The notes beneath the pieces are model-generated. The model ran no database searches. It worked only from the letters and a program-made list of their open reading frames with translations, and was not told the DNA's origin. 44,854 nucleotides of DNA from a virus. Below, one piece after another: positions 3,256 to 44,854 of the stretch (positions within the stretch are counted from its first letter, which is position 1; every line of letters begins with the position of its first letter). Made by a program: the position numbers and the translations under genes. The DNA is taken from positions 1-44,854 of IMG/VR virus record IMGVR_UViG_3300049019_000014; one strand, written 5' to 3'.

Positions 3256-3750
3256 ATGCGAGTTACTGACCTCCCCTTCCCCGGCAAGCTGACCCACGGC
3301 GTTCACCTCCGTCGCGAAGTGACGAAGGCCCTGCAATCCGTGGACCGCATCGCCAACAGCATGACCGGCGCAGGTGCCGGCCACGTCGCCTATGACCTCG
3401 GCAACTTCCTTGTGGAAGCCGGCCGACTCGCCTACTCGGTGAAGTCCAACAGCACCGGCCCGGTCGCCAAGCGGGTGTACGTCTACAACGCCGCGAAGTC
3501 CTACGTCGTCATCGAGTTCGACCGCCAACTGGATCCGCAGTTCATCCCTGCGGCCGCCGGCCTCACCTTCTCTGGCGCGCAGACCGTCTCGACGCAGTTC
3601 GTGGACGGCCGCAAGTGGATCATGAAGGTGTCGGGCAACGTCGCCACCGGCTTCACCGTGGCCTACGCCCAGCAAGCTGACGGCGTGCGCGACCTGAACG
3701 GCAACAAGGCGGCGACCTTCACGGCCGTCACCGGTAGCATCATCAGCTAA
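3256..3750 (+). CDS. Hypothetical protein with a C-terminal Ig-like/bacterial-Ig-type repeat
   Basis: The ORF is 164 aa with an AAAGGA RBS. The C-terminal half 'VVIEFDRQLDPQFIPAAAGLTFSG...VSGNVATGFTVAYAQQADGVRDLNGNKAATFTAVTG' follows the beta-sandwich pattern common in bacterial Ig-like domains. Confidence 0.65.
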   Translation: MRVTDLPFPGKLTHGVHLRREVTKALQSVDRIANSMTGAGAGHVAYDLGNFLVEAGRLAYSVKSNSTGPVAKRVYVYNAAKSYVVIEFDRQLDPQFIPAAAGLTFSGAQTVSTQFVDGRKWIMKVSGNVATGFTVAYAQQADGVRDLNGNKAATFTAVTGSIIS

Positions 3751-4939: not shown

Positions 4940-5157
4940 TGCGCGCCGTTGCACTGCTACTCACTCTGCTACTTGCCGCGTGCGCCCAATTCCAACTCCC
5001 GCCTGCCGAGCTTCTGGCTGACTGCCAAGAGCCTGCCGCGCGGGTCACAACGAACGGCCTACTCGCCCGCTACGCCCTCGACTTGCGGACTGCTCTGCGG
5101 TCCTGCAACGACGACAAGGCCGCGCTCCGCGAGTGGGCGAAGGAGATCCAACGATGA
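4936..5157 (+). CDS. Lipoprotein, o-spanin (Rz1-like) candidate
   Basis: The signal peptide has a lipobox 'LLLAAC'. The mature part has two further Cys residues and a 'TNGLLARYALDLRTALRSCNDDKAALREW' motif that I recall from Rz-type lysis proteins. The gene sits in the lysis cassette. Confidence 0.55.
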   Translation: MMRAVALLLTLLLAACAQFQLPPAELLADCQEPAARVTTNGLLARYALDLRTALRSCNDDKAALREWAKEIQR

Positions 5158-5399
5158 TGCGCCCCTACAAGATCGAGGCGGACAGCCCCGGCCAACGCTG
5201 GAAGAATCTGACCGCCCATGCAACCAACGTGCTCGCTGACCGGCCCCGTGCTCTCTACGTGAGTGGCGCGGGCAATGCTGTGCTCGCCGGTGATGACGGC
5301 CAGGACATCACGTTTGCCGTCACGGCCGGGCAATTCGTCGCGCTGTCCCCGGTGTACTTCCGCGCCACCAGCACGGCAACCCTCGTCGGGATCTACTGA
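5154..5399 (+). CDS. Small protein resembling the GTA head-spike base family (RCAP_Rcc01079-like)
   Basis: The ORF is 81 aa from ATG 5154, with AAGGAG 8 nt upstream. 'RALYVSGAGNAVLAGDDGQDITFAVTAGQFVALSPVYFRATSTATLVGIY' matches my recollection of the family pattern (ALYVG.aGd..v....G..vTF..v.aG..lP.rv.rV.atgTTA..lvgLY). Confidence 0.5.
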   Translation: MMRPYKIEADSPGQRWKNLTAHATNVLADRPRALYVSGAGNAVLAGDDGQDITFAVTAGQFVALSPVYFRATSTATLVGIY

Positions 5400-7261
5400 T
5401 GTTCGGCTTCGGCTTCTCTCTCACCAAGCTCGCGAGTGCTGCGCAAGCCGCTATCGCCTACGGCGCGCGGGTTGCCATCACCGGCACGAAGCTGTTCCTC
5501 ACCGGCGGCACGGAGCTGTACCCCAGGGGTGTCAACCAAGGCACCTGGGGGCAGAACTACAGCATCGACGCGCCCGCCATCGCTGGCTACGGCGCGAACC
5601 ATGTGCGCCTGCTCATCCGCTCCAACCTCGGCGGCACGCTGGACTCTTACGAGACGGGCACTGACGCCTACGTCAACAACGGCACCGACTACCTCAGCGA
5701 CACACACAAGGCGCAGTTCCTGCAGGAAATCGATTGGGCCGGCAGCTCACAGCTCTGGTCTATCGTTGCATTCGACACCGACCAGGGCCAGGGCGTCGGC
5801 CGGCAGACCCTCCCCACATCCTATTGGGACTTCTTCGATGGCTCGCCGGAAGCGGCTGCCGCGAAGGAGAAGTTCTTCAAGGGCTGGGAGTGGATCGCCA
5901 CCCAATGTCGTGGGCGCGAGTACATCCTGTGTTACGAGCTGCTCCCCGAGCCGATCCCGTACAACAGCACGGCCGACGACGCAATCGCACTGCGCGCATT
6001 CTATCGCGAGCTGATCGCCCGTGTGCGCGCCATCGATCCGAACACCCCGTTCCTGATCGGCGGCCGCAACAGCTATGGCACGAACACCGTGGCCGAGGCG
6101 TACCTGTCGGAGCGCACGGACTGCATCTACACCATCGACCTGCTGACCAACCGGGTTGAGGCCGAGGACACCATCGCTGCCACGCTGGAGGGCTTCCGCG
6201 CTTGGCTGGACAGCACGAACGTCCCGGGTCTGATCCAGCAGCTCGGCCGGAACACCGGCGAAGATGAAGGCGCAGGCACCACGACCGAGAACGCTGGCCT
6301 CACCGCCATGTGCGGCTCGATGTCTCTGTGCAATGCACTGCACATCCCTTACACATGGTGGCAGTATCACCAGAACACCGACAGTCAGACAGCCTACGGC
6401 CTCTGGTTCAAGACGGTGTACCCCGGCACAGGTCCGCTGAACTGGACTCCAAAGCCGGCCGAGATCGCCGCCTTCCAGTACCACATGACGCAGAGCCCTG
6501 CGGCCATCGAGGCGGCTGCTGTCGCGGCTGCTACGGCGGCGGGTGCAGAGCTGTACTACATCAAGCCGGACTTCTCGAATATCTGGCAGACGCAGGACAC
6601 CAGCACCCCGGTCACGGCGGTTGGTCAGGCCATTGGCCGAGTCGCACCTGTCGTGGGCACGACCAACCTGAACCAAAGCACGAGCACGCTTCGGCCGCTG
6701 CTGGCCGCAACCCGCAACGGGTACGCGATGCAGTTCGATGGCACAGATGACTGGCTCGGCCTGAGCGTCACGTACTTCGCTGCTGACGACAATGCCACCG
6801 TCATGGCCGCCTGCCGTCCGGCAAGCACCGCGACGAATAAGGTGATCTGGCATACAGGCACCTCGGGCAGCATCGTGCGCACTCCGTACCTCGCCTCTCT
6901 GGCAACGGACGAGATCCAGGCATCGTGGCGTGGCGACACCAACGAGAGCACCGGCAGTATCAACAGCACCACGCTGTGCGATGACCGAGCAATCGTGGCA
7001 ACCGCGCAGCGAGTCGGCGGGAACAAGAAGTGCTTCCTCCAAGGCGTGCAAGAAGGCGCCACCAACACCGGCACGGTAAGCAGCATCGCGAGCATCACCC
7101 GCTCACGGTTCGGCGGGTCCTCGTCGGGTACGAACTGCTTCCAAGGTCCCATTGCCCTGCTCTGCATCGGCAAGACGATCACCGACGAGCAGCGCCGCGC
7201 TATCTCCCGCTGGGGTGCGTGGCTCATCAGTGCGCCATTCCGTGGCGCTATTCCCGCATAA
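5399..7261 (+). CDS. GH5-like (TIM-barrel glycosidase-like) N-domain plus LamG/concanavalin-like C-domain protein
   Basis: The ORF is 620 aa and is TGATG-coupled to the previous gene. The GH5-type strand-4 signature is present but altered ('ILCYELLPEPIP' instead of ..NEP..). The C-terminal 200 aa follows the LamG pattern ('MQFDGTDDWLGL...FGGSSSGTNCFQGPIALLCIGKTITDEQ'). Confidence 0.65.
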   Translation: MFGFGFSLTKLASAAQAAIAYGARVAITGTKLFLTGGTELYPRGVNQGTWGQNYSIDAPAIAGYGANHVRLLIRSNLGGTLDSYETGTDAYVNNGTDYLSDTHKAQFLQEIDWAGSSQLWSIVAFDTDQGQGVGRQTLPTSYWDFFDGSPEAAAAKEKFFKGWEWIATQCRGREYILCYELLPEPIPYNSTADDAIALRAFYRELIARVRAIDPNTPFLIGGRNSYGTNTVAEAYLSERTDCIYTIDLLTNRVEAEDTIAATLEGFRAWLDSTNVPGLIQQLGRNTGEDEGAGTTTENAGLTAMCGSMSLCNALHIPYTWWQYHQNTDSQTAYGLWFKTVYPGTGPLNWTPKPAEIAAFQYHMTQSPAAIEAAAVAAATAAGAELYYIKPDFSNIWQTQDTSTPVTAVGQAIGRVAPVVGTTNLNQSTSTLRPLLAATRNGYAMQFDGTDDWLGLSVTYFAADDNATVMAACRPASTATNKVIWHTGTSGSIVRTPYLASLATDEIQASWRGDTNESTGSINSTTLCDDRAIVATAQRVGGNKKCFLQGVQEGATNTGTVSSIASITRSRFGGSSSGTNCFQGPIALLCIGKTITDEQRRAISRWGAWLISAPFRGAIPA

Positions 7262-7270
7262 GAAGGAACC

Positions 7271-8848
7271 ATGACCGCATCAACCGACTTCTACCTGGGG
7301 TCGGGGGACCGCATCTTCCGCGACGTGGCCGCAGGACCGGATACCCCGGCCCTCGTCCCGAAGTGGGTGTCAACCCTGACGCCCGCTGAAGTGCAAGTCC
7401 TCCTGGACCTCAACTCAAGCAACCCTCTCCGTCAGGCGGTGGAGAAGGTGTACTCCGACAACGACGAGCCCCTGACCAGTGCGCAGGCACAGGCCAAGCA
7501 TACCGCCAGCATCGCACAGACCTTCCCGACGAGCAAGAGCTACGGCAAGGCCGTGTACCACGAGATCCCGCAAGGTGTCAACGTGTGGTCCCCGCTGCTC
7601 ATCAGCATGTGGTCGAAGATCCGCAGCCGCTGGGGCAAGGGCGGCAGCATCGTGCAGATCAAGCATGGCACCGACAGCACCCCGCGTGCGTTGTTCAAGT
7701 ACAAGGTTGACGACTACGCCGGCCAAAGCTCGATCTCCGGTATCCCCGAGGTCGAAGGGGTCCAGCTCTACGGCGACCGCTCCAGCCTGAGCAATTCCGA
7801 CAAGGCGCTGGTTGTCGAGCACGGCATCTGGCTCCCCGAGCCGACCGCCGGGAGCAACGGCAAGACCGATGGCATACACCTGACCCGCGTGGTGGCCTCT
7901 GGCTTCAACGGCGACGGCATGCGCGTGGATCGCTTCCACAACGCGCTTCGCCTGAACGACGCCCGCTTCATCGACAACAAGGGCGCCGGGTTCCGTGGGA
8001 ACAAGATCAGCGACATGAAGTGGTTCAACTTCAGCGCTGGGCGTAACGAAGAGATCCAGGCCGAGTTCACTGACTGCGCATCACCGCAGCTCATCGGTGG
8101 CGATATATGGAATCCTGGCGGCTCTGCCTTCACCGGCCTGTACGCCTCTGCGTTCTACTCCTGTGCGAACTGGCGCATGGCCTTCCTTGAGCACAACGGG
8201 ATGCTGAACATCGAGGGCGACAACAGCGACTCCGGTTCAAGCAAGCGGTACTACGGCCAAGGCGCCCTGGTGCTGGGCATGACACTGAAGGCCAGCAAGG
8301 ACACATACCTAGGTACGCAGTACGTCGGAGGCGGCGGCGCTCTGGCGTACGACAGCCAAGTGCGTGTGAAGTCCGCTCACGGAATGAACTTCGCGTTCCT
8401 CACCACCACCCGTGGCGAGTTCGATGAGTACGACCCTCTGCTGCCGAAGTACATATTCGACATCAGCGTCAAGTCGGGCGGTGCTGCCGGTGAAGAAGGT
8501 TACGTCACCCTGACCAGTCCGTCGCTCCGTGAAGCAACCCGCAGTGCTTCTGCTGACAAGGTCGTGCTGTCCTACCGGCAGCATTGGGCCAAGCAGCCGA
8601 GCCTATGCGTGTGGCGCACCACCAAGCCGGGCCAGCTCCTGATGCTGCCGACTGCGACGGATCAGGTGAACCTCATAAAGCTCACCGGCTCAGTGCAGAC
8701 GCTGCTGAAGGTGAAGTACCCCGAGCTGTACCTGGGAATGGACGATACTCGCTCGCTGCTCACCGGCAACGACGCGACCACGTTCGACATCCCGGCCGCT
8801 GCGGGCACGCTGCCTGCAGGCTACAGCTGGTTCATCGTCGCTTGGTAA
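7271..8848 (+). CDS. Right-handed beta-helix protein (tailspike/depolymerase-like) with a degenerate tail-collar-like C-terminus
   Basis: The ORF is 525 aa with an AGAAGGA RBS. It has beta-helix rungs ('GDGMRVDRFHNALRLNDARFIDNKGAGFRGNKISDMKWFNFSAGRNE'). The C-terminus 'KYPELYLGMDD...GNDATTFDIPAAAG' echoes the phage tail-collar motif (yP.L...iG..yG.g.ttF.lPDlRG). It lacks a T7 gp17-type N-terminal adaptor. Confidence 0.65.
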   Translation: MTASTDFYLGSGDRIFRDVAAGPDTPALVPKWVSTLTPAEVQVLLDLNSSNPLRQAVEKVYSDNDEPLTSAQAQAKHTASIAQTFPTSKSYGKAVYHEIPQGVNVWSPLLISMWSKIRSRWGKGGSIVQIKHGTDSTPRALFKYKVDDYAGQSSISGIPEVEGVQLYGDRSSLSNSDKALVVEHGIWLPEPTAGSNGKTDGIHLTRVVASGFNGDGMRVDRFHNALRLNDARFIDNKGAGFRGNKISDMKWFNFSAGRNEEIQAEFTDCASPQLIGGDIWNPGGSAFTGLYASAFYSCANWRMAFLEHNGMLNIEGDNSDSGSSKRYYGQGALVLGMTLKASKDTYLGTQYVGGGGALAYDSQVRVKSAHGMNFAFLTTTRGEFDEYDPLLPKYIFDISVKSGGAAGEEGYVTLTSPSLREATRSASADKVVLSYRQHWAKQPSLCVWRTTKPGQLLMLPTATDQVNLIKLTGSVQTLLKVKYPELYLGMDDTRSLLTGNDATTFDIPAAAGTLPAGYSWFIVAW

Positions 8849-8852
8849 GAAG

Positions 8853-8878
8853 GTAGCCCGCAAGGGCTTACTCTTCTC
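8853..8878 (+). terminator. Stem-loop with a GCAA tetraloop followed by a U/C-rich tract, just after the last late gene
   Basis: The sequence is ggtagccc-GCAA-gggct(t)ac then tcttctc. The stem is 7 bp with a 1-nt bulge. It lies 5 nt after the stop at 8848. Confidence 0.4.
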
Positions 8879-8899
8879 GGGCCGAAGTACCCCATCTGC

Positions 8900-8928
8900 A
8901 GTATACCACAAAGGAATAACCTTGTCAA
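8900..8928 (-). promoter_or_regulatory. Leftward sigma70-type promoter, perfect -35 and 17-nt spacer
   Basis: The minus strand reads cgcTTGACA-aggttattcctttgtgg-TATACT-gcagATGg. The -35 is at 8928..8923 and the -10 at 8905..8900. Confidence 0.5.
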
Positions 8929-8931
8929 GCG

Positions 8932-9522
8932 TAGGGCTTTAGCCCTTTGCGCCAATCCTGGCGTAGGGGCATAGCGGTCTGCAACCCACTCCCGAACGCT
9001 TGGCAGGGTGAAACCTAAATTTGCTGCAGACAAACGAGGTGGCCCCTCCAACCTCGCACGCTCGCGTTACCCCCGTGCCGGCCCTCGGGCGCTCGCGCCT
9101 GCGGCGCACGCGGGCGCGTTCCGCGCGGATGCCCACGGAGGGGCCTAGGCGGGCGCAGGCGGGCCTGCAGGCATGCGGGTGATGCGCGGGTATGGGCGCG
9201 ACGCTCGGGCGCTCCTGGGCGCTATGCGCGAGCCTGGGCGTACGCGGGTGCGCAGGCGCGGGCGCCGGGCTGGGGTCATTCGACGGCACGCCGCCAGGGC
9301 GCTCGACAGGGCGCTAGGCCACCCTGCTATGCCCAGGCATGCGATACGCGCGCCACGGGGCTGGCAGGGGCCTTGCCGGGGCACTCCGGGCCATCGGCCC
9401 TAGGCTGGCAGTGAGCCTGCTGTACCGTGCGAGGTCGGCGGGCACGCGGGCGGGATCTGTTACGCCTTTCGGCTGCTGCGCCCTGGCAGCCGTTCGCTGT
9501 TCCCGAACCACGAATAACCCAG
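8932..9522. repeat. Very GC-rich ORF-free segment with clustered GGGCGC(T) words; candidate genome-terminus / collapsed terminal-repeat region
   Basis: There are nine exact GGGCGC words between 9077 and 9304 (starts 9077, 9102, 9141, 9184, 9197, 9207, 9250, 9287, 9299). Only short overlapping ORFs are present, on both strands, with no RBS. The segment lies between the last late gene and the early promoters, as the T7 ends do. Confidence 0.5.
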
Positions 9523-9525
9523 CGC

Positions 9526-9554
9526 TTGACAAGGGCATTGATACCCGCTACAGT
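9526..9554 (+). promoter_or_regulatory. Early host (sigma70) promoter 1
   Basis: TTGACA (9526-9531), 17-nt spacer, TACAGT (9549-9554). Confidence 0.65.
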
Positions 9555-9635
9555 TCGTTCCATGCCTAAGGGCTTGACCGGGTGCGAACAGCGGCGTGAT
9601 CGTCGGTTACCGGACCAAGGACTAGGGAATAGGGC

Positions 9636-9664: not shown

Positions 9665-9697
9665 CGAACCCGACACTAGAGAGCCTTAGGGCAATCT

Positions 9698-9712
9698 GGT
9701 ACGCCTAATGCA
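9698..9712 (+). promoter_or_regulatory. Phage-RNAP promoter candidate, copy 1 (left-end, T7 phiOL-like position)
   Basis: It carries the exact motif GGTACGCCTAATGCA, preceded by aatct. This is one of four copies in the genome. Confidence 0.55.
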
Positions 9713-9842
9713 AGGGGCGGGACCTACCGGTACAGTACCGGACCAGGGAAGACCCTAGTAGCAGGCAGACAGAGTTAGACAGTACACTAGGGACCAGCAG
9801 ACCTAGTACCTGATGGGAGCAGAGCTAGCAATAGCCCTACAC

Positions 9843-18938: not shown

Positions 18939-21346
18939 TGCTCAAGACGTGGGACATTGAAACCACCACGGGCACACGCTTCAAGCGCAAGGGCACGCCG
19001 TTCGCGGACGCCATCAATTGGGTTGTCACCCACGGCTGGAAGTCTGTCGGTGAGCCGGTGCACGAGCGGCGCTTCGGCGCGCAGCGGCCCGGCCCCGGTT
19101 GGCTGCGCGAGGTGCTCGACGGATGCACGCTGCTCGGCGGGTTCAACATCAAGTTCGACTTGCTGCATGCGCTGCAGGATGCGGACAACCTCTCCGCGTG
19201 GATGGAGTGGGTCGCCAACGGTGGAAACATTTGGGACGCCCAGCTAGCAGAGTACCTGCTCGAAGGGATGGACCAGAAGAACCACATGCTCTCGCTGGAT
19301 GAGGTGGCGCCACGCTACGGCGGGCAGACCAAGTTCGATGAGGTCAAGCTGCTGTGGGAAGCGGGCGTCAACACGCACGAGATCGAGCCCGCGCTGCTGA
19401 CCCGCTACCTGTGCGGCGATCCGTCGAAAGGAGAACTCGGGGACGTGGAGAACACGGAACTGATCGTTCGCGGCCAGCTCAAGCGTGCCCGGGACTGCGG
19501 CCAGCTCCGCTCCATCATGCTCAACATGGGCGCCCTGATCTGCTCCATTGAAATGGAACGGAACGGGATGTTCGTGGACAAGGCACGCGGCCTCGTCATG
19601 GCCGAGGAACTGAAGGGCAAGATAGCCGAGCTTGACAAGCTGCTGATCGAGTTCATCCCGAAGGACCTCCCGTTCACGTTCAATTGGGGATCACCCAAGC
19701 AGAAGTCTGCGCTGATCTTCGGTGGCACTGTGCAGTGGGATGCGTACGAGTACGATCTTGCACACGGCGGCACGATTCTGAAGCACGAGTACGACTGGCA
19801 AGAGGATAACCGCGCCGATGCCGGTAACCCTCCCGCCCTGGCCTATGCGCAGATGGATCAGGTCCAATGGGTCCTGAACGACGGCAGCACCACGTCGGTC
19901 GATCCGTTCGACGCCGAGGATCTATCCCGGTACGCCTCATACAAGGCCGGCAAGAACGCAGGCGACTACAAGACGAAGAAGGTCAAGGTAGACAACCTCG
20001 ACAAGCCGAAGGGCCGCTCCGTCAAGGCACCGTACACCTTCGCAGGCTTCACCAAGCCGGACAAGCGGTGGGCCAGCAGCGAGCCTGGGTTCTACAGCAC
20101 GAGCAGCGACGTGATCGAGGAACTCGGGTCACGGAACATCCCGTTCCTGAAGACCCTCTCGCTGTTCCAGAAGCTGACCAAGGATCTCGGCACGTACTTC
20201 ATCAGCGAGGGCACCAACGGCGAGCCGAAGGGGATGCTCACGCTGGTCGGGCTGGATGGGCTGATCCATCACAAGATCAACCACACGAGTACCGTCACCG
20301 GCCGCTTCAGCGAGTCGGACCCTAACCTGCAGAATGTGCCGAAGGGCAACAAGTCTAAGGTGAAGCTGCTGTTCATCAGCCGCTGGGGCGCAGACGGACT
20401 CATCATTCAGTCCGACTTCTCATCGCTGGAAATCTACATCCAGGCGATCCTCACGCACTGCTCGCAGCTCATCGCTGACTTGCGAGCCGGGCTGGACATG
20501 CACGTCAAGCGCCTCGCCCTCAAGGAGGGCATGACGTACGACGAAGTGTTCGTGCTGTGCAAGGGCGACAAGGCCACCGGCGCAGAGCCGGTCCCCGAGT
20601 GGGACTACAAGCGCACTGGCGCGAAGGTGTTCTCGTTCCAGCGTGCATACGGCGCCGGGGCTGCGAAGATCGCAGACGATACCGGCATGCCGATTGACGA
20701 CGTGAAGGCGCTGATCGTGGCCGAAGAGGCGGAGTACCCCGAGATCGGGGAGCACTTCACCGAGCGCACGAAGGAGATCAAGGCGAACCGCAAGTCCAGC
20801 GGGTACTCGATACCGCACCCGGAGTTCCCCGCCGTGATGTGCAACCTGGGCAAGGCATACATCCGCACGCCGGACGGCAAGCTGTACTCCTATCAGGAGT
20901 CGCCGAGCCCTGAGTACCTCGTGAAGAAGGGCATCTACTGTTCCTTCTCTCCGACCGAGATCAAGAACTACGAAGTGCAGGGCACTGGTGGCGAATGGAT
21001 GAAGGCGGCGATGTGGCTCATGGTGCGTGCTTGGTACGCAAGAAAGAACTTCGATGGCCTGTCCCTGCTCGTCAACACGGTGCACGATGCCGCTTACGCC
21101 GACTCGCATAAGAAGGTTGCGCTTGAGAGCGCGGCTCTCCTGCATGCGTGTATGGAAGCGGCGAGCGATCTCATGGAGTATTGGTTTGCTTGGACACTGC
21201 CTCTACCCGTACCCTCTGACACGTCCTGGGGACCGTCCATGATGGACGAAGAGAAGATCCCAGGGCTCAACGAATTGGTCCAACCCCTGCGCAGGCAGCT
21301 TCGTGACCAGTACATGGAAGGCTATACGCCCTCCTACCTCCACTGA
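18938..21346 (+). CDS. Family A DNA polymerase with 3'-5' exonuclease domain
   Basis: It has ExoI 'WDIETT', motif A 'DFSSLEIY', motif B 'RTGAKVFSFQRAYGAG' and motif C 'VHDAAY'. The start is taken at ATG 18938. Confidence 0.93.
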   Translation: MLKTWDIETTTGTRFKRKGTPFADAINWVVTHGWKSVGEPVHERRFGAQRPGPGWLREVLDGCTLLGGFNIKFDLLHALQDADNLSAWMEWVANGGNIWDAQLAEYLLEGMDQKNHMLSLDEVAPRYGGQTKFDEVKLLWEAGVNTHEIEPALLTRYLCGDPSKGELGDVENTELIVRGQLKRARDCGQLRSIMLNMGALICSIEMERNGMFVDKARGLVMAEELKGKIAELDKLLIEFIPKDLPFTFNWGSPKQKSALIFGGTVQWDAYEYDLAHGGTILKHEYDWQEDNRADAGNPPALAYAQMDQVQWVLNDGSTTSVDPFDAEDLSRYASYKAGKNAGDYKTKKVKVDNLDKPKGRSVKAPYTFAGFTKPDKRWASSEPGFYSTSSDVIEELGSRNIPFLKTLSLFQKLTKDLGTYFISEGTNGEPKGMLTLVGLDGLIHHKINHTSTVTGRFSESDPNLQNVPKGNKSKVKLLFISRWGADGLIIQSDFSSLEIYIQAILTHCSQLIADLRAGLDMHVKRLALKEGMTYDEVFVLCKGDKATGAEPVPEWDYKRTGAKVFSFQRAYGAGAAKIADDTGMPIDDVKALIVAEEAEYPEIGEHFTERTKEIKANRKSSGYSIPHPEFPAVMCNLGKAYIRTPDGKLYSYQESPSPEYLVKKGIYCSFSPTEIKNYEVQGTGGEWMKAAMWLMVRAWYARKNFDGLSLLVNTVHDAAYADSHKKVALESAALLHACMEAASDLMEYWFAWTLPLPVPSDTSWGPSMMDEEKIPGLNELVQPLRRQLRDQYMEGYTPSYLH

Positions 21347-28486: not shown

Positions 28487-28748
28487 CCGGGGCCTGAGCA
28501 CGGCCCTTGGCCGCATCCGTGGGGCATGGCTGGTCCTTACTGGCGGGGTATTGGAACCCAGTACGCCTAATGCAACTCCTGGGGAGGTGGTAGTACACCG
28601 GCTAAGCCAACAATCCATGGCACTGCTGGAGAAGAGACTACCCAAGCCCATGCTAGGCGGCACTGGCACCAACGACCCCATATACGCTGGCTACATGCTG
28701 GGCGTGCAGCGGGTACTGACAGACCTCCGTGAAGGATTCGGACGATGA
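28467..28748 (+). CDS. Hypothetical protein; start uncertain (GTG 28467 with a strong SD, or ATG 28617 downstream of the internal phage promoter)
   Basis: AGGAGG (28452-28457) lies 9 nt before GTG 28467. The ORF is ATGA-coupled to the next gene. Phage promoter motif copy 2 lies inside it. Confidence 0.5.
   Translation: MTSSSLSRGLSTALGRIRGAWLVLTGGVLEPSTPNATPGEVVVHRLSQQSMALLEKRLPKPMLGGTGTNDPIYAGYMLGVQRVLTDLREGFGR
28561..28574 (+). promoter_or_regulatory. Phage-RNAP promoter candidate, copy 2 (start of the late region)
   Basis: GTACGCCTAATGCA is present, which is 14 of the 15 motif positions. It begins 75 nt after the RNAP stop. Confidence 0.55.
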
Positions 28749-30991: not shown

Positions 30992-31782
30992 CAGAAGCAG
31001 TCGCCGCCCCTGCGGCACCAGCAGCCCCCGGCACTCCCGAGATCGTCGCACCTATTGCGGCTGTCCCTGCTGTCCCCGCCGCGCCGGCCCCCGGCGCCTT
31101 GGAGATCGCTGACCCGGTAGCGGAAGCTGCAAAGGCTGCGGCCGAAGCGGCGGCCAAGCCTGCCGAGGTGTTCACGTACACCCCGAGCGGTGACCCCGGC
31201 CTGGATCTGGCCCTCGACTTCGTCGGCAACCTCGGGTTCGGCCCGGCTCATCCCGCCATCAAGGCGGCCGAGGCCGGCGACTTCAGCCAGCTCGACGCCG
31301 CGCTCAAGGCGATGGGCGACAAGGCCAAGGGATTCGAGAAGGTGCTGGCTGCTGGCAAGGCCGGATTCGAGCGGATCGACACGGCCGGCAAGGAGCGGGC
31401 AGGCAAGACCACTGCCGCGATCCACGAGATCGTGGGCGGCCCTGACCAATGGGTGAACATCCAGAAGTGGGCCGGCGAGAACGCTACCCCCGACGAGCGT
31501 GCTGCGGTGAACGCTGCCCTCAAGGCGGGTGGCATCGTGGCGAAGGCCGTGGCCCGCGAGCTGCACGGGCTCTACATGAAGAACCCCACGGCAGAGAAGG
31601 CCGGTGCTCCGGTGCGCGCCCCTGCTGCACCCACGGCCACGACCGGCTCGAATGCACTCAGCCCCCGCGAGTACACCGCCGAGGTGGCGAAGCTGTCCGC
31701 AAAGATGGGCGGCCGCATGGAGCAGTCCAACGAGTATCGCGATCTGCAAGCACGTCGGCAGGCATGGCGTGGCGGGAAATAA
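30988..31782 (+). CDS. Scaffolding protein (T7 gp9-like)
   Basis: The ORF is 264 aa, Ala/Pro/Glu-rich and low-complexity. It lies between portal and capsid and is ATGA-coupled. Confidence 0.8.
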   Translation: MTEAVAAPAAPAAPGTPEIVAPIAAVPAVPAAPAPGALEIADPVAEAAKAAAEAAAKPAEVFTYTPSGDPGLDLALDFVGNLGFGPAHPAIKAAEAGDFSQLDAALKAMGDKAKGFEKVLAAGKAGFERIDTAGKERAGKTTAAIHEIVGGPDQWVNIQKWAGENATPDERAAVNAALKAGGIVAKAVARELHGLYMKNPTAEKAGAPVRAPAAPTATTGSNALSPREYTAEVAKLSAKMGGRMEQSNEYRDLQARRQAWRGGK

Positions 31783-31785
31783 TCC

Positions 31786-31800
31786 GGTACGCCTAATGCA
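31786..31800 (+). promoter_or_regulatory. Phage-RNAP promoter candidate, copy 3 (upstream of the major capsid gene)
   Basis: It carries the exact motif GGTACGCCTAATGCA, preceded by aataatcc. It ends 48 nt before the capsid ATG. Confidence 0.65.
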
Positions 31801-31847
31801 GACCGTTGCCGCAATCGCGGCTCACAACCTTTAAGGAGTACGCCGCA

Positions 31848-32846
31848 ATGGCTCTCGACGATGTCTACAATGTAACCCACCCAGGCCAGCGCGGTGCGAC
31901 CGGCGCGGTCAACGCCCAACACATCGAAGAGTACACCGGTGTTGTGGAAGCCACCATCGAACGGCTCTCCGTTCTGGCTCCCCACATCCCGATGCGCTCG
32001 GTTCGTGGCACCTCCATCTTCTCGAACTTCGGCGTCGGCGAGTCCGCGCTGCAGAAGGTCGTGCCCGGCGCCGCGCCTGACGGCACCGTGAACAAGTTCG
32101 GCAAGAACTCCGTGACCGTGGACACGCTGGTCCTGGCCCGCTCGGCCTTCCCGCTGCTGGAAACCTTCCAGGTCAGCTACGATGCCCGCGCCGAAGTCGG
32201 CCGTGAGCACGGCAAGAAGCTCGCCAAGTTCACCGACCAAGCGCTGTTCATCGCTGCCCTCAAGGCCGCCGCTGCCACCCAATCGGCCTACGCCGGCCTC
32301 ACCTCGGGTGCTGGTCACTCGGGCGCCTCGCAGGTGGTCATGTCGAACGCCTCCGACTACCTCGACCCGGCCAAGCTGCTCTCCTACCTCGATGACCTGT
32401 TCATCAGCATGGAAGCCAAGGACGTGGACCCGGTGGCCGAGAACCTGATGATCGTGTCCAAGCCCGAGCACTGGTATCGCCTGTCGCAGAACGAGCTGCT
32501 GATCAACACGCAGTACGTCACCGCCAACGGCACCAAGCTGGACAACGTTCCGGTGCTGAAGGATCGCGGCGTCCCCGTGCTGAAGTCCAACAACTTCCCC
32601 GGCGGCGAGACGATCACCGGCCACCTGCTGTCGAACTCGGACAACTCGAACTTCTACGACGGCGACTTCACGAAGACCGTCTTCGGCGTGTTCGGTCCCC
32701 GTGCCATCCAGGCCGGCGAAACCATCCCGCTGACCACGTCGGTGTACTGGTCGCAGGAATACCTGCAGTGGCTCGTGGACGCCTACACCTCGTTCGGCGC
32801 CGGCCCGAACCGCGTCGAGTACGCTGGTCGGATCGACAAGCCCTAA
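31848..32846 (+). CDS. Major capsid protein (T7 gp10-like)
   Basis: The ORF is 332 aa from ATG 31848, with AAGGAG at 31833-31838. The TTG at 31806 in the ORF track would overlap the promoter. A strong intrinsic terminator follows. Confidence 0.88.
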   Translation: MALDDVYNVTHPGQRGATGAVNAQHIEEYTGVVEATIERLSVLAPHIPMRSVRGTSIFSNFGVGESALQKVVPGAAPDGTVNKFGKNSVTVDTLVLARSAFPLLETFQVSYDARAEVGREHGKKLAKFTDQALFIAALKAAAATQSAYAGLTSGAGHSGASQVVMSNASDYLDPAKLLSYLDDLFISMEAKDVDPVAENLMIVSKPEHWYRLSQNELLINTQYVTANGTKLDNVPVLKDRGVPVLKSNNFPGGETITGHLLSNSDNSNFYDGDFTKTVFGVFGPRAIQAGETIPLTTSVYWSQEYLQWLVDAYTSFGAGPNRVEYAGRIDKP

Positions 32847-43599: not shown

Positions 43600-43630
43600 C
43601 GGAACCTGGGGGCTTATGCCCCGGTAATCC

Positions 43631-43645
43631 GGTACGCCTAATGCA
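43631..43645 (+). promoter_or_regulatory. Phage-RNAP promoter candidate, copy 4 (upstream of the tail-fibre gene)
   Basis: It carries the exact motif GGTACGCCTAATGCA, preceded by ggtaatcc. It ends 20 nt before ATG 43665. Confidence 0.6.
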
Positions 43646-43664
43646 AACCTGAGGGCTTAACAAC

Positions 43665-44854
43665 ATGGTACAACGAATCACGCAGGTCGAATATCCGGGG
43701 GATGGGACCACCACGCTGTGGGACTTCAACTTCGACGGCGGATATATCGACCGTGCCCACGTTAAGGCCAAGATGGTCAACGTGACAACCGAAGTAGAGA
43801 CGGACATCCCGGTGTCCTCCGCAATGTTCGTGAGCGACTACAGGCTCACCGTCGAGCCGGCGATCCCGATCGGCTACAACCTCGTCATATACCGCGCGAC
43901 TCCTACCATCCCGTTGGTATCCTGGCCGACTCGCGCCAGGATAGACCGGGAGGGTCTCGACCTCACAGCGAAGCAGGGGCTGTTCGTAGCCGCAGAGCAG
44001 AAAGAGGCCGTGCCGCTCACTGCCCTGACCTTGCAAGATGCGATCAACGCCCGTGACGCCGCCCTAGTTGCTGCGAGTGCGGCCGAGGACAGTGCAGAGG
44101 CGGTACTCGAATCTACCGTGACCAGCGTTGCTTTTGGTGCCGTTGGTGACAACGTGACTGACGATACGGCTGCCCTGAATACCGCCATCACATGGGCGCT
44201 CGCGAATGGCGCAGTGCTTGACTGGCCGGTCGGGACGTATGTGGTTACGGCTAACCTCCCCTCACTCCATTTGGTGCGTCACCGTGGTGCGGGTAAAATT
44301 CGCCGTGGAACGGATGTGTTCTATCCGGACCCCGGGTCAGCAGACTCCAATACCCTCTATGTCTCGACGACGGGCACGTCAACCAACGACGGGTTAACTC
44401 CCGACAAGGCGCGTAGGCCACAGCAAGCACTCGACGTGCTCACAAACTACGGGCCGGCGCTTAATGGCTTCTGGAACGTGGTTCTTGCTGCGGGTGTATA
44501 CACAGACACTAGCATGGACTATCCGACCGGACTGCTTTCGCGCAATCCGGTAATCATCCGTGGTCCAGTTGTTGGGCACCCTAACATGCCCACCGCTAAG
44601 TTCATCCCGGCGAGCCCGGGATCATCGGGCATTGAGTTCTCCGGATTGTGCACGGTTACCCTGCGTGACGTGTACTTCGAGAACTTCACGTCCTCAACGT
44701 CATCGTTCGCAGTGGCGGCCACACAAGGCGCGTGGCTTCGTACTGAGAACGTGTGGGTAAAGGACACAGTCACAGGGATAACCTGCAATGCAGCCATCAT
44801 CGAGGTGCGTGGTGGCATTGTGGACAACTGTACTACCGGGCTGCGGTCGCTATT
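43665..44854 (+). CDS. Tail fibre/tailspike, N-terminal part (T7 gp17-type adaptor plus pectate-lyase-like beta-helix); runs off the window and continues at 128..944
   Basis: I translated this by hand and found no stop before the window end. The N-terminus 'RITQVEYPGDGTTTLWDFNFDGGYIDRAHVKAKM...IYRATP...REGLDLTAKQGLFVAAEQKE' fits the gp17 N-terminal domain pattern. 'AFGAVGDNVTDDTAALNTAI' is the classic beta-helix depolymerase entry motif. Confidence 0.85.
   Translation, partial: MVQRITQVEYPGDGTTTLWDFNFDGGYIDRAHVKAKMVNVTTEVETDIPVSSAMFVSDYRLTVEPAIPIGYNLVIYRATPTIPLVSWPTRARIDREGLDLTAKQGLFVAAEQKEAVPLTALTLQDAINARDAALVAASAAEDSAEAVLESTVTSVAFGAVGDNVTDDTAALNTAITWALANGAVLDWPVGTYVVTANLPSLHLVRHRGAGKIRRGTDVFYPDPGSADSNTLYVSTTGTSTNDGLTPDKARRPQQALDVLTNYGPALNGFWNVVLAAGVYTDTSMDYPTGLLSRNPVIIRGPVVGHPNMPTAKFIPASPGSSGIEFSGLCTVTLRDVYFENFTSSTSSFAVAATQGAWLRTENVWVKDTVTGITCNAAIIEVRGGIVDNCTTGLRSL
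44728..44854. repeat. Second copy of the 127-bp terminal overlap (identical to 1..127)
   Basis: Direct comparison with 1..127. Confidence 0.9.

Follow-up and report, generated by a model that had tools for sequence, protein, structure and literature searches.

Only in the Rhodobacter gene transfer agent (RcGTA) have head spikes of the type considered here been demonstrated, and homologues of its spike-base gene, rcc01079, were earlier noted, with a patchy distribution, in Rhodobacterales and their prophages only (PMC5026251; PMC8601537). In RcGTA, the base protein Rcc01079 (GhsA) forms a pentamer on each capsid penton, where its N-termini grip two adjacent capsid subunits and its Glu12 helps to coordinate a cation with capsid Asp210 (PMC7296036). 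A single subunit of the fiber protein Rcc01080 (GhsB) is present in each spike, and its residues 2–10 (IALGLGLGL) fill the five pockets of the base pentamer as a five-pointed star, the hydrophobic pockets of the base subunits taking up its (iso)leucines (PMC7296036). Here we describe a three-gene module in a 44,854-nucleotide (nt) stretch of viral DNA (positions 1–44,854 of IMG/VR record IMGVR_UViG_3300049019_000014; the whole stretch is hereafter called the window), whose first two genes likely encode an RcGTA-type head spike on the capsid vertices of a T7-like podophage.

The RcGTA head spike (6TB9, 6TBA, 6TSU, 6TUI) is the closest described system. The two bases are homologous over their full length; in both systems the fiber gene directly follows the base gene, the pair lies at a distance from the head genes, hydrophobic and small residues alternate at the fiber N-terminus, and the fiber body is of a sugar-binding type. 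The window, however, represents a T7-like podophage with a gp10-type capsid, whereas RcGTA is an alphaproteobacterial, sipho-like agent. The anchor of the window fiber is built from Phe (FGFGF) and that of RcGTA from Leu, and the 620-amino-acid (aa) window fiber combines GH5-like and LamG domains in contrast to the 325-aa lectin-like fiber of RcGTA, the two bodies being set apart by description and the anchor peptide alone being comparable. Unlike in RcGTA, a third large gene is joined to the pair. Next closest is the gp29/gp30 pair of the Rhodobacter phage RcapNL, with a base homologue of 42% identity. As in the window, this pair follows lysis genes (holin and lysozyme in RcapNL) at the end of the late operon; RcapNL differs in its siphovirus-type tail module (tape measure, distal tail protein) and in a fiber of only 144 aa that lacks an enzyme-like domain.

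The module and its parts are as follows.

5154 to 5399, plus strand: gene 1, 81 aa (or 80 aa with the second ATG, at 5157, as start), head-spike base homologue.
5399 to 7261, plus strand: gene 2, 620 aa, head-spike fiber candidate, with anchor peptide, helix, GH5-like barrel, and LamG-like sandwich.
5402 to 5431, plus strand: "star" anchor peptide of gene 2, residues 2–11 (FGFGFSLTKL), hydrophobic at 2, 4, 6, and 8.
5474 to 6493, plus strand: GH5-like barrel of gene 2, residues ~26–365, from profile alignment, AlphaFold2 (AF2), and Foldseek.
6686 to 7183, plus strand: LamG/ConA-like β-sandwich of gene 2, residues ~430–595, from AF2 secondary structure.
7271 to 8848, plus strand: gene 3, 525 aa, member of a rare family.

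The ATG of gene 1 overlaps the TGA of the upstream spanin gene, and that of gene 2 shares one base with the stop codon of gene 1 (TGATG). An earlier note on this DNA had given the three genes the same coordinates and coupling, which are exact, and had correctly described their surroundings, from the virion block and gp17-type fiber across the junction of the stretch to the holin, the small and large terminase subunits (TerS, TerL), and the lysis genes.

The identity of gene 1 anchors the comparison with RcGTA. The 81-aa protein matches the NCBIfam profile NF048002, "spike base protein, RCAP_Rcc01079 family," with E = 2.7e-12 and 46.8 bits (cutoff 28), its residues 8–81 spanning profile positions 9–85 of 85. 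When searched against the PDB with phmmer, its sole match is "Head spike base Rcc01079" from structures of the RcGTA particle (6TB9 and other entries), residues 5–79 aligning to 7–82 of 84 in chain E3 of 6TB9 (E = 2.3e-8). By these profile and alignment measures, the protein is a genuine full-length member of the RcGTA spike-base family. The earlier note had staked its idea on such a profile match, which was clearly found; the resemblance that it placed in the C-terminal 50 aa is real and is not limited to that part. In the PDB alignment, Asp10 stands opposite the cation-coordinating Glu12 of Rcc01079, within a D/E-S-P motif kept in close relatives. The protein is predicted, by analogy with Rcc01079, to form a pentamer on the fivefold vertices of the capsid. 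Orthologues are encoded in four T7-like lineages. Pfam holds no model for the family; a word-indexed search with the 81-aa protein returned three close relatives only, and a metagenome scan with an alignment of the T7-clade bases gave no matches.

Base homologues also occur in another setting. In Rhizobium phage RHph_Y25 (L001:7956-8219) and in the similar viral contigs L013–L016, one lies just 5′ of the terminase genes with no fiber-like gene directly after it; a base of this type may act alone, or its fiber may be encoded elsewhere.

The second line of evidence is the N-terminus of gene 2. The 620-aa protein begins MFGFGFSLTKL, with Gly or Ser between the hydrophobic residues, and RcapNL gp30, encoded after the base homologue, begins MGLGLGIGLGL. 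A scan with RcapNL gp29 yielded 53 genome loci with base homologues, mostly alphaproteobacterial, 37 of which have an adjacent downstream open reading frame (ORF) of at least 100 aa. At least three of four alternating positions, counted from residue 2 or 3, are hydrophobic at 21 of these 37 loci (background 12%, binomial P = 8e-11), and all four at seven (background 1.1%, binomial P = 1e-7), the background being random 9-mers from the same translated sequences. Typical starts of the ORFs after base genes are MIGLELSLGRV, MIGVGVRLGAG, MLGVGLRLPPL, and MPGFGFGYGP.

Within the T7-like clade, the peptide is the most constant part of the protein that we compared: residues 1–11 of the GH5 protein are 82–100% identical among four lineages, as against 31–38% for residues 12–40 and 48–54% for the bodies in diverged lineage pairs. 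In the closer pair, P0022 and L003, residues 12–40 and the body alike show 85–87% identity. The conservation of the peptide holds even for a lineage whose base is only 40% identical to that of the window, and metagenomic relatives keep the order of lysozyme, spanins, base, GH5 protein, and third protein.

The plug can also be used to find the socket. For a stop overlap with MFGFGF after it, the corresponding DNA pattern, TGATGTTYGGNTTYGGNTTY, has 45 hits in viral contigs; in 3 of the 45, the ORF closed by the TGA encodes a member of the base family (E = 4e-20, 6e-13, and 1e-9). The bodies of the three MFGFGF ORFs recovered in this way are unrelated to GH5. One, of 782 aa, belongs to an RcGTA-like cluster, where the base gene separates it from an HK97-type capsid gene just 5′ of them; the remaining two, of ~530 aa, lie beside an integrase gene, and one of these has a GDSL-like esterase match. 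The same body, in turn, recurs with its own base in a prophage-like region of a Burkholderiales metagenome-assembled genome, where an 81-aa NF048002 member (E = 1.9e-19) precedes a GH5-LamG homologue of 50% identity whose sequence opens with MLGLSLTQ. Because motif enrichment, conservation within the clade, recovery by plug alone, and this second pairing with the same body all point the same way, we regard the base-plus-plug pairing, as judged from these patterns, as conserved, general, and modular.

In the AF2 model of the 620-aa protein, residues 1–7 are disordered and residues 8–21 form a helix. This free peptide and the compact remainder of the model fit a fiber of a single subunit. A signal peptide at this N-terminus was considered and rejected: the orthologues continue with a charged segment (LFQKVRSLGER), and AF2 gives a free peptide and an amphipathic helix.

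A related start was seen at L128:6482-8338. This protein begins MFGFGFGLGF, a perfect five-position motif, and continues with a Pro/Ser/Thr linker, an Sde182-type nucleoside-hydrolase-like domain, and Laminin_G_3. Its gene follows a spanin-like ORF and a GH26-like gene; the immediately upstream ORF is not base-like, and a base for this protein may be encoded elsewhere on the contig.

If genes 1 and 2 work as their RcGTA counterparts do, their docking partner would be the following protein.

31806 to 32846, plus strand: major capsid protein, T7 gp10-like, PF21703 (Gp10A-like) at E = 5e-5, below the cutoff.

The position of its gene, between those of the scaffold and the tubular protein, fits a major capsid protein. 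Five copies of the 81-aa base would sit on each pentamer of this protein, at eleven vertices, and one copy of the 620-aa protein would be held there by its first ~10 residues (FGFGFSLTKL), the alternating aromatic and aliphatic side chains occupying pockets of the base ring. A short helix would tether a monomeric GH5-like barrel and LamG-like lectin domain, which would bind, and possibly cut, host surface polysaccharide. Such spikes would be made late, by read-through of a fiber–terminase–lysis operon, and, before the tail fiber engages, would attach the particle to capsule or biofilm matrix in a first contact that is multivalent and reversible. Pentamer formation, capsid docking, stoichiometry, function, and location in the virion are all features that we infer from sequence. 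Phage phi29 gp8.5 and T4 Hoc are capsid-mounted, nonessential adhesins thought to act as weak, multivalent binders of surface glycans; to our knowledge, these proteins and their modes of attachment are unrelated to those of the window, and none carries a glycoside-hydrolase-like domain.

A tail location has to be weighed against this, and it requires a view of the window's own tail fiber.

43665 across the junction to 944: tail fiber, 668 aa, PF03906 (T7 gp17 N-terminal domain) at residues 6–134.

KP34-type phages (Drulisvirus; gp49 and gp57 of KP34) are also phiKMV-like, and in them, too, the gene for an extra large glycan-directed protein follows those of the maturase and endolysin, at a distance from the gp17-like fiber gene. 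The second depolymerase of KP34 binds a T4gp10-like branch of the fiber through a seven-residue peptide (PMC6872550). The earlier note knew of no description of such an arrangement; for the gene placement that does not quite hold, as a second receptor-binding gene after maturase and endolysin is the rule in KP34-type phiKMV-like phages (PMC6872550). The module might by this precedent be a further receptor-binding set for the tail, of the "anchor-branch" type known from KP34/KP32, with the large proteins on the gp17-like fiber or the nozzle and the small one as a tail adaptor. Both gene position and attachment by a short N-terminal peptide would be shared with KP34; some members of the 525-aa family have tail-fiber-type N-terminal repeats, and relatives have weak Collar and Beta_helix matches. 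The base family even bears the PHROG name "tail fiber protein," a label which traces to phage RcapNL (PMC5026251) and is an annotation transfer, not an experiment.

We nevertheless hold this tail set to be unlikely. The partner in KP34 is a branch on the tail fiber, engaged by the peptide MALxxLV, whereas the partner in the window is a full-length homologue of a protein whose structure was solved on the pentons of a capsid, and the peptide there is a repeat of fivefold type. Neither MALxxLV nor PF03906 is present in any of the three proteins, whose large members begin MFGFGFS and MTASTDF. The window fiber runs from PF03906 straight to a pectate-lyase-like domain that starts at residue 157, with nothing found between them by Pfam, although no dedicated comparison with T4gp10 was made, and by eye it resembles the fiber of the module-bearing L021 over the first ~125 residues only. 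Moreover, a fivefold star would meet no matching symmetry on a tail of 12-, 6-, or 3-fold elements. The capsid vertices are the only fivefold sites of a T7-like particle.

The cargo that a head spike of this kind would carry is a GH5-like barrel followed by a LamG-like sandwich, as the earlier note had proposed and as profile, model, and fold searches all bear out. The 620-aa protein matches PF00150 with E = 5e-13 and 49.5 bits (gathering score 23.5), and its AF2 model, made from a 32-sequence alignment, has a predicted local distance difference test score (pLDDT) of 89.1 and a predicted template-modeling score (pTM) of 0.90. A (β/α)8 barrel extends to about residue 365, and a β-sandwich occupies residues ~430–595. 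Foldseek relates the model to solved GH5 mannanases, xylosidases, and endoglucanases (E = 1e-14 to 1e-11, template-modeling score up to 0.74 on the target), and PF13385 (Laminin_G_3) is recorded for homologue P0031. Such a compact enzyme-plus-lectin model would be consistent with a single-subunit fiber.

The barrel shares its fold and the acid/base Glu of strand 4 with GH5 enzymes (PF00150; CcsZ, 6UJE; Thermotoga Cel5A). This residue, Glu184 (5948–5950), does not vary among 32 sequences and stands opposite the LNEP Glu of 6UJE. The domain differs from GH5 in that the preceding Asn is Pro, so that NEP reads PEP; in its fusion to a virion-anchor peptide and LamG; and in the strand-7 nucleophile, the Glu of GEFG in 6UJE, with which Gln281 (6239–6241) aligns. 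The Gln, which is near-invariant, and the PEP are shared by nearly all 32 homologues, a cellular form with a signal peptide (P0043) among them, and the nearby Asp289 is invariant. Because Gln replaces the canonical nucleophile, we name the domain GH5-like on the basis of its alignment and do not count it as a proven GH5 enzyme; it may only bind glycan, as a pseudo-enzyme, or it may act by an unusual mechanism.

Database search with the 620-aa protein recovered 34 proteins, the window's own included, with variable N-termini. The body is found behind an LGYxGSxNDM type of start, in a fusion to a sulfatase, and behind a start with Leu at every fourth residue; in P22-like contigs, homologues lie among neck and tail genes. 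Since the same body stands behind so many N-termini, these tail contexts included, the GH5-LamG body is, on comparative grounds, best described as shuffled cargo, with the N-terminus deciding where it is mounted.

Two of these alternative settings deserve description. In P0012 (L080:8001-9902) and at L083:5974-6050, Leu recurs with a period of four residues, four to five times over (MSLTTALTSPLTSGLTTPL; MSLTKPLTKALTRPLTS), and an N-terminus of this type might bind another symmetric socket. At L080:7729-9902, L081:5986-8084, L148:6729-8995, and L149:6708-8854, the GH5-LamG homologue always follows an overlapping ORF of 90–97 aa. The idea that these small ORFs are divergent bases found no support (hhalign probability ~1%, hidden Markov model scores near zero). 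Two from P22-like contigs are 27% identical to each other, and one other encodes a K/R-rich basic protein; the ORFs may be alternative adaptors.

Several observations weigh against a head spike in the window. The capsid protein to which the base would dock is T7 gp10-like and not of the RcGTA type. The fifth alternating position of the peptide is Lys10, which is not hydrophobic, and the star may because of this fill only four pockets. The depolymerase activity of the GH5-like domain is doubtful, as judged by residue identity, since the canonical nucleophile is absent. The body is not head-specific either, because homologues in P22-like contigs are encoded among neck and tail genes, after small proteins without detectable likeness to the base. 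To these may be added the PHROG label discussed above and the position of the module beside the lysis cassette, which would also suit soluble enzymes released at lysis.

This last point raises the prospect that the large proteins are not part of the virion at all and that they loosen exopolysaccharide once set free at lysis, the base being a remnant or serving another role. The genes directly follow those of the endolysin and spanins in the same late operon; the nearest isolates hold other enzymes in the slot after the terminase genes, such as a lipase in Caulobacter phage Lullwater; and in relative P0044 of the 525-aa protein, an esterase-like domain precedes the window-type N-terminal region, which speaks against a role of that region as a terminal anchor. 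This account is improbable in our judgment, as the extreme conservation of residues 1–11 and their constant association with a base gene, in unrelated genomes and on unrelated bodies, are not expected of a free enzyme, the N-termini of the orthologues are not signal peptides (the charged LFQKVRSLGER comes next), and the base gene is intact and conserved in all four T7-like lineages. A capsid-vertex spike made of genes 1 and 2 thus remains the reading that we favor.

Gene 3 is less readily placed. The 525-aa protein, which starts MTASTDF, has no match in Pfam and no sequence match in the PDB, and it lacks the PF03906 adaptor, the star motif, and the KP34 docking peptide. Its AF2 model, from a six-sequence alignment, has a pLDDT of 38 and was not used for fold search. 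An exhaustive profile search found 50 representatives of the family among 1.84 billion proteins, sharing residues ~58–524 and differing at their N-termini (fiber-type repeats, a CarboxypepD_reg-like domain, and others). Of what the earlier note had said of this protein, the absence of a gp17-type adaptor stands; its β-helix and degenerate collar find indirect backing through sub-threshold Beta_helix (PF13229) and Collar (PF07484) matches in relatives P0051, P0057, and P0049. Orthologues of 58–79% identity hold the same position beside the base–fiber pair in the T7-like clade, while relatives of 40% identity, with a different N-terminal ~140 residues, are encoded between TerL and the portal gene of a lambda-like phage. 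From these relationships we conclude that the protein is tailspike-like, glycan-directed, and co-inherited with the head-spike pair, and that it probably acts on the same glycan layer as the gene 2 protein; it could be mounted on the tail, on the head, or on neither.

For gene 3, a KP34-type system is the main rival account. It is also conceivable that all three proteins are capsid-mounted, the third riding on the GH5-LamG fiber or on another capsid site in a two-enzyme head spike. Genes 2 and 3 are strictly adjacent, with a gap of 9–12 nt, and co-inherited wherever the contig is long enough (the window, L005, and L021–L024), and two further backbones, L080 and L081, have large proteins of similar size next to their GH5-LamG homologues. 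We rate this the least probable of the alternatives: the neighbors in L080 and L081 show no significant similarity to the 525-aa protein, the third protein has no star motif, and the RcGTA base ring is fully occupied by one fiber peptide. The capsid-mounted spikes put forward in the earlier note accordingly gain from the base match and the anchor peptide of gene 2, while nothing ties gene 3 to the capsid, and the members of its family elsewhere behave as tail fibers or tailspikes do.

The surrounding genome is that of a phiKMV/T7-like phage. It encodes a T7-type single-subunit RNA polymerase, a family A DNA polymerase, and a DnaB-like helicase, together with a structural set of T7-type portal, tubular protein, nozzle protein, gp14-like protein, and large internal virion proteins. 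The first 127 nt of the window recur as its last (1–127 = 44728–44854), giving a circular assembly with a true length of 44,727 bp; the overlap lies inside the tail-fiber gene and reflects circularization of the assembly, not a physical terminal repeat. The physical ends are probably in the noncoding region at ~8900 to 9600. Downstream of the fiber come the holin, TerS, TerL, a 164-aa ORF, the endolysin, two spanins, and then the three-gene module. Its genes are the last of the late arm, because the early end of the genome starts after 8848, with ~1.8 kb of noncoding DNA and several TTGACA-17-TACAGT/TATACT promoters. Its likely transcription signals are these.

9692–9716, 19923–19947, 28554–28578, 31780–31804, and 43625–43649: ~25-nt promoter-like repeat D2, consensus TAATCCGGTACGCCTAATGCA.
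43625 to 43649, plus strand: D2 copy nearest upstream of the module, just 5′ of the tail-fiber gene.
8848 to 8877: hairpin directly after gene 3, fold ΔG = −21.6 kcal/mol, z = −1.66 versus shuffled sequence.

D2 is probably a promoter for the phage RNA polymerase; some of its five copies precede the capsid and tail-fiber genes, and none lies between 944 and 8848. Because there is no copy between the fiber gene and the module, the module is probably transcribed by read-through from the fiber promoter at 43625–43649, a role that we infer for it. The hairpin after gene 3 may, on weak evidence, terminate the late operon; a terminator scan did not call it. On the minus strand, a near-consensus sigma-70 promoter at 8900–8928 (TTGACA-17-TATACT, with an extended −10 TG) is aimed leftwards into the hairpin and the end of gene 3, and could be a source of antisense or short RNA or a piece of the terminal region.

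The 164-aa ORF at 3256–3750, between TerL and the endolysin, is kept in relatives. Its N-terminal part matches phrog_13588, its start resembles Lullwater gp46 on visual comparison, and its C-terminal part has a weak Big_5 Ig-like match; it might be a further virion decoration protein.

Among phages in GenBank, neither blastn with positions 5000–9000 nor tblastn with the 620-aa and 525-aa proteins found a match, hence no isolate offers a synteny partner. By TerL, the nearest isolates are Curvibacter phage P26059B and Caulobacter phage Lullwater, and the module is absent from both. The slot after the terminase genes holds a small HExxH-motif protein and a 452-aa hypothetical protein in P26059B (L018:4142-5694) and an annotated lipase in Lullwater (L017:7874-10283), and looks like a variable site for accessory enzymes in this phage group. 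Because of the nearest terminase relative and the Burkholderiales prophage homologue, the host of the window phage is probably a betaproteobacterium. Our literature search found no description of RcGTA-type head spikes on Autographiviridae.

To judge by its genes, this phage probably carries glycan-binding proteins at two sites, the head and the tail. A socket-and-plug pair in a T7-like phage would carry the RcGTA arrangement into another kind of virion, probably into another bacterial class, and onto a 620-aa enzyme-like cargo, and the same plug heads other enzyme bodies elsewhere. Architectures with the base and plug comprise T7-like podophages, an RcGTA-like element with an HK97-type capsid, integrase-bearing prophage-like contigs, and a Burkholderiales prophage-like contig, and their cargos a GH5-like/LamG protein, a GDSL-like esterase, and a large protein without an assigned fold. 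We advance tentatively, as an idea somewhat short of an even chance, that the spike base and star peptide form a general, portable display system by which unrelated phages hang interchangeable, single-chain, glycan-active cargo on their capsid vertices.

The pairing suggests a sequence rule for capsid-mounted adhesins, namely, a base gene followed by an ORF that starts M-hydrophobic-G-hydrophobic-G-hydrophobic, which would catch adhesins that pipelines label "tail fiber" or "hypothetical." It also suggests a compact handle of ~10 residues for the display of cargo on phage capsids. If the proposal is true, the window would supply the first case from a T7-like phage, in which a GH5 domain lacking its nucleophile would serve as a binding-only "dead enzyme" adhesin, and the phage head would be, besides the tail, a site where host range and biofilm penetration evolve.

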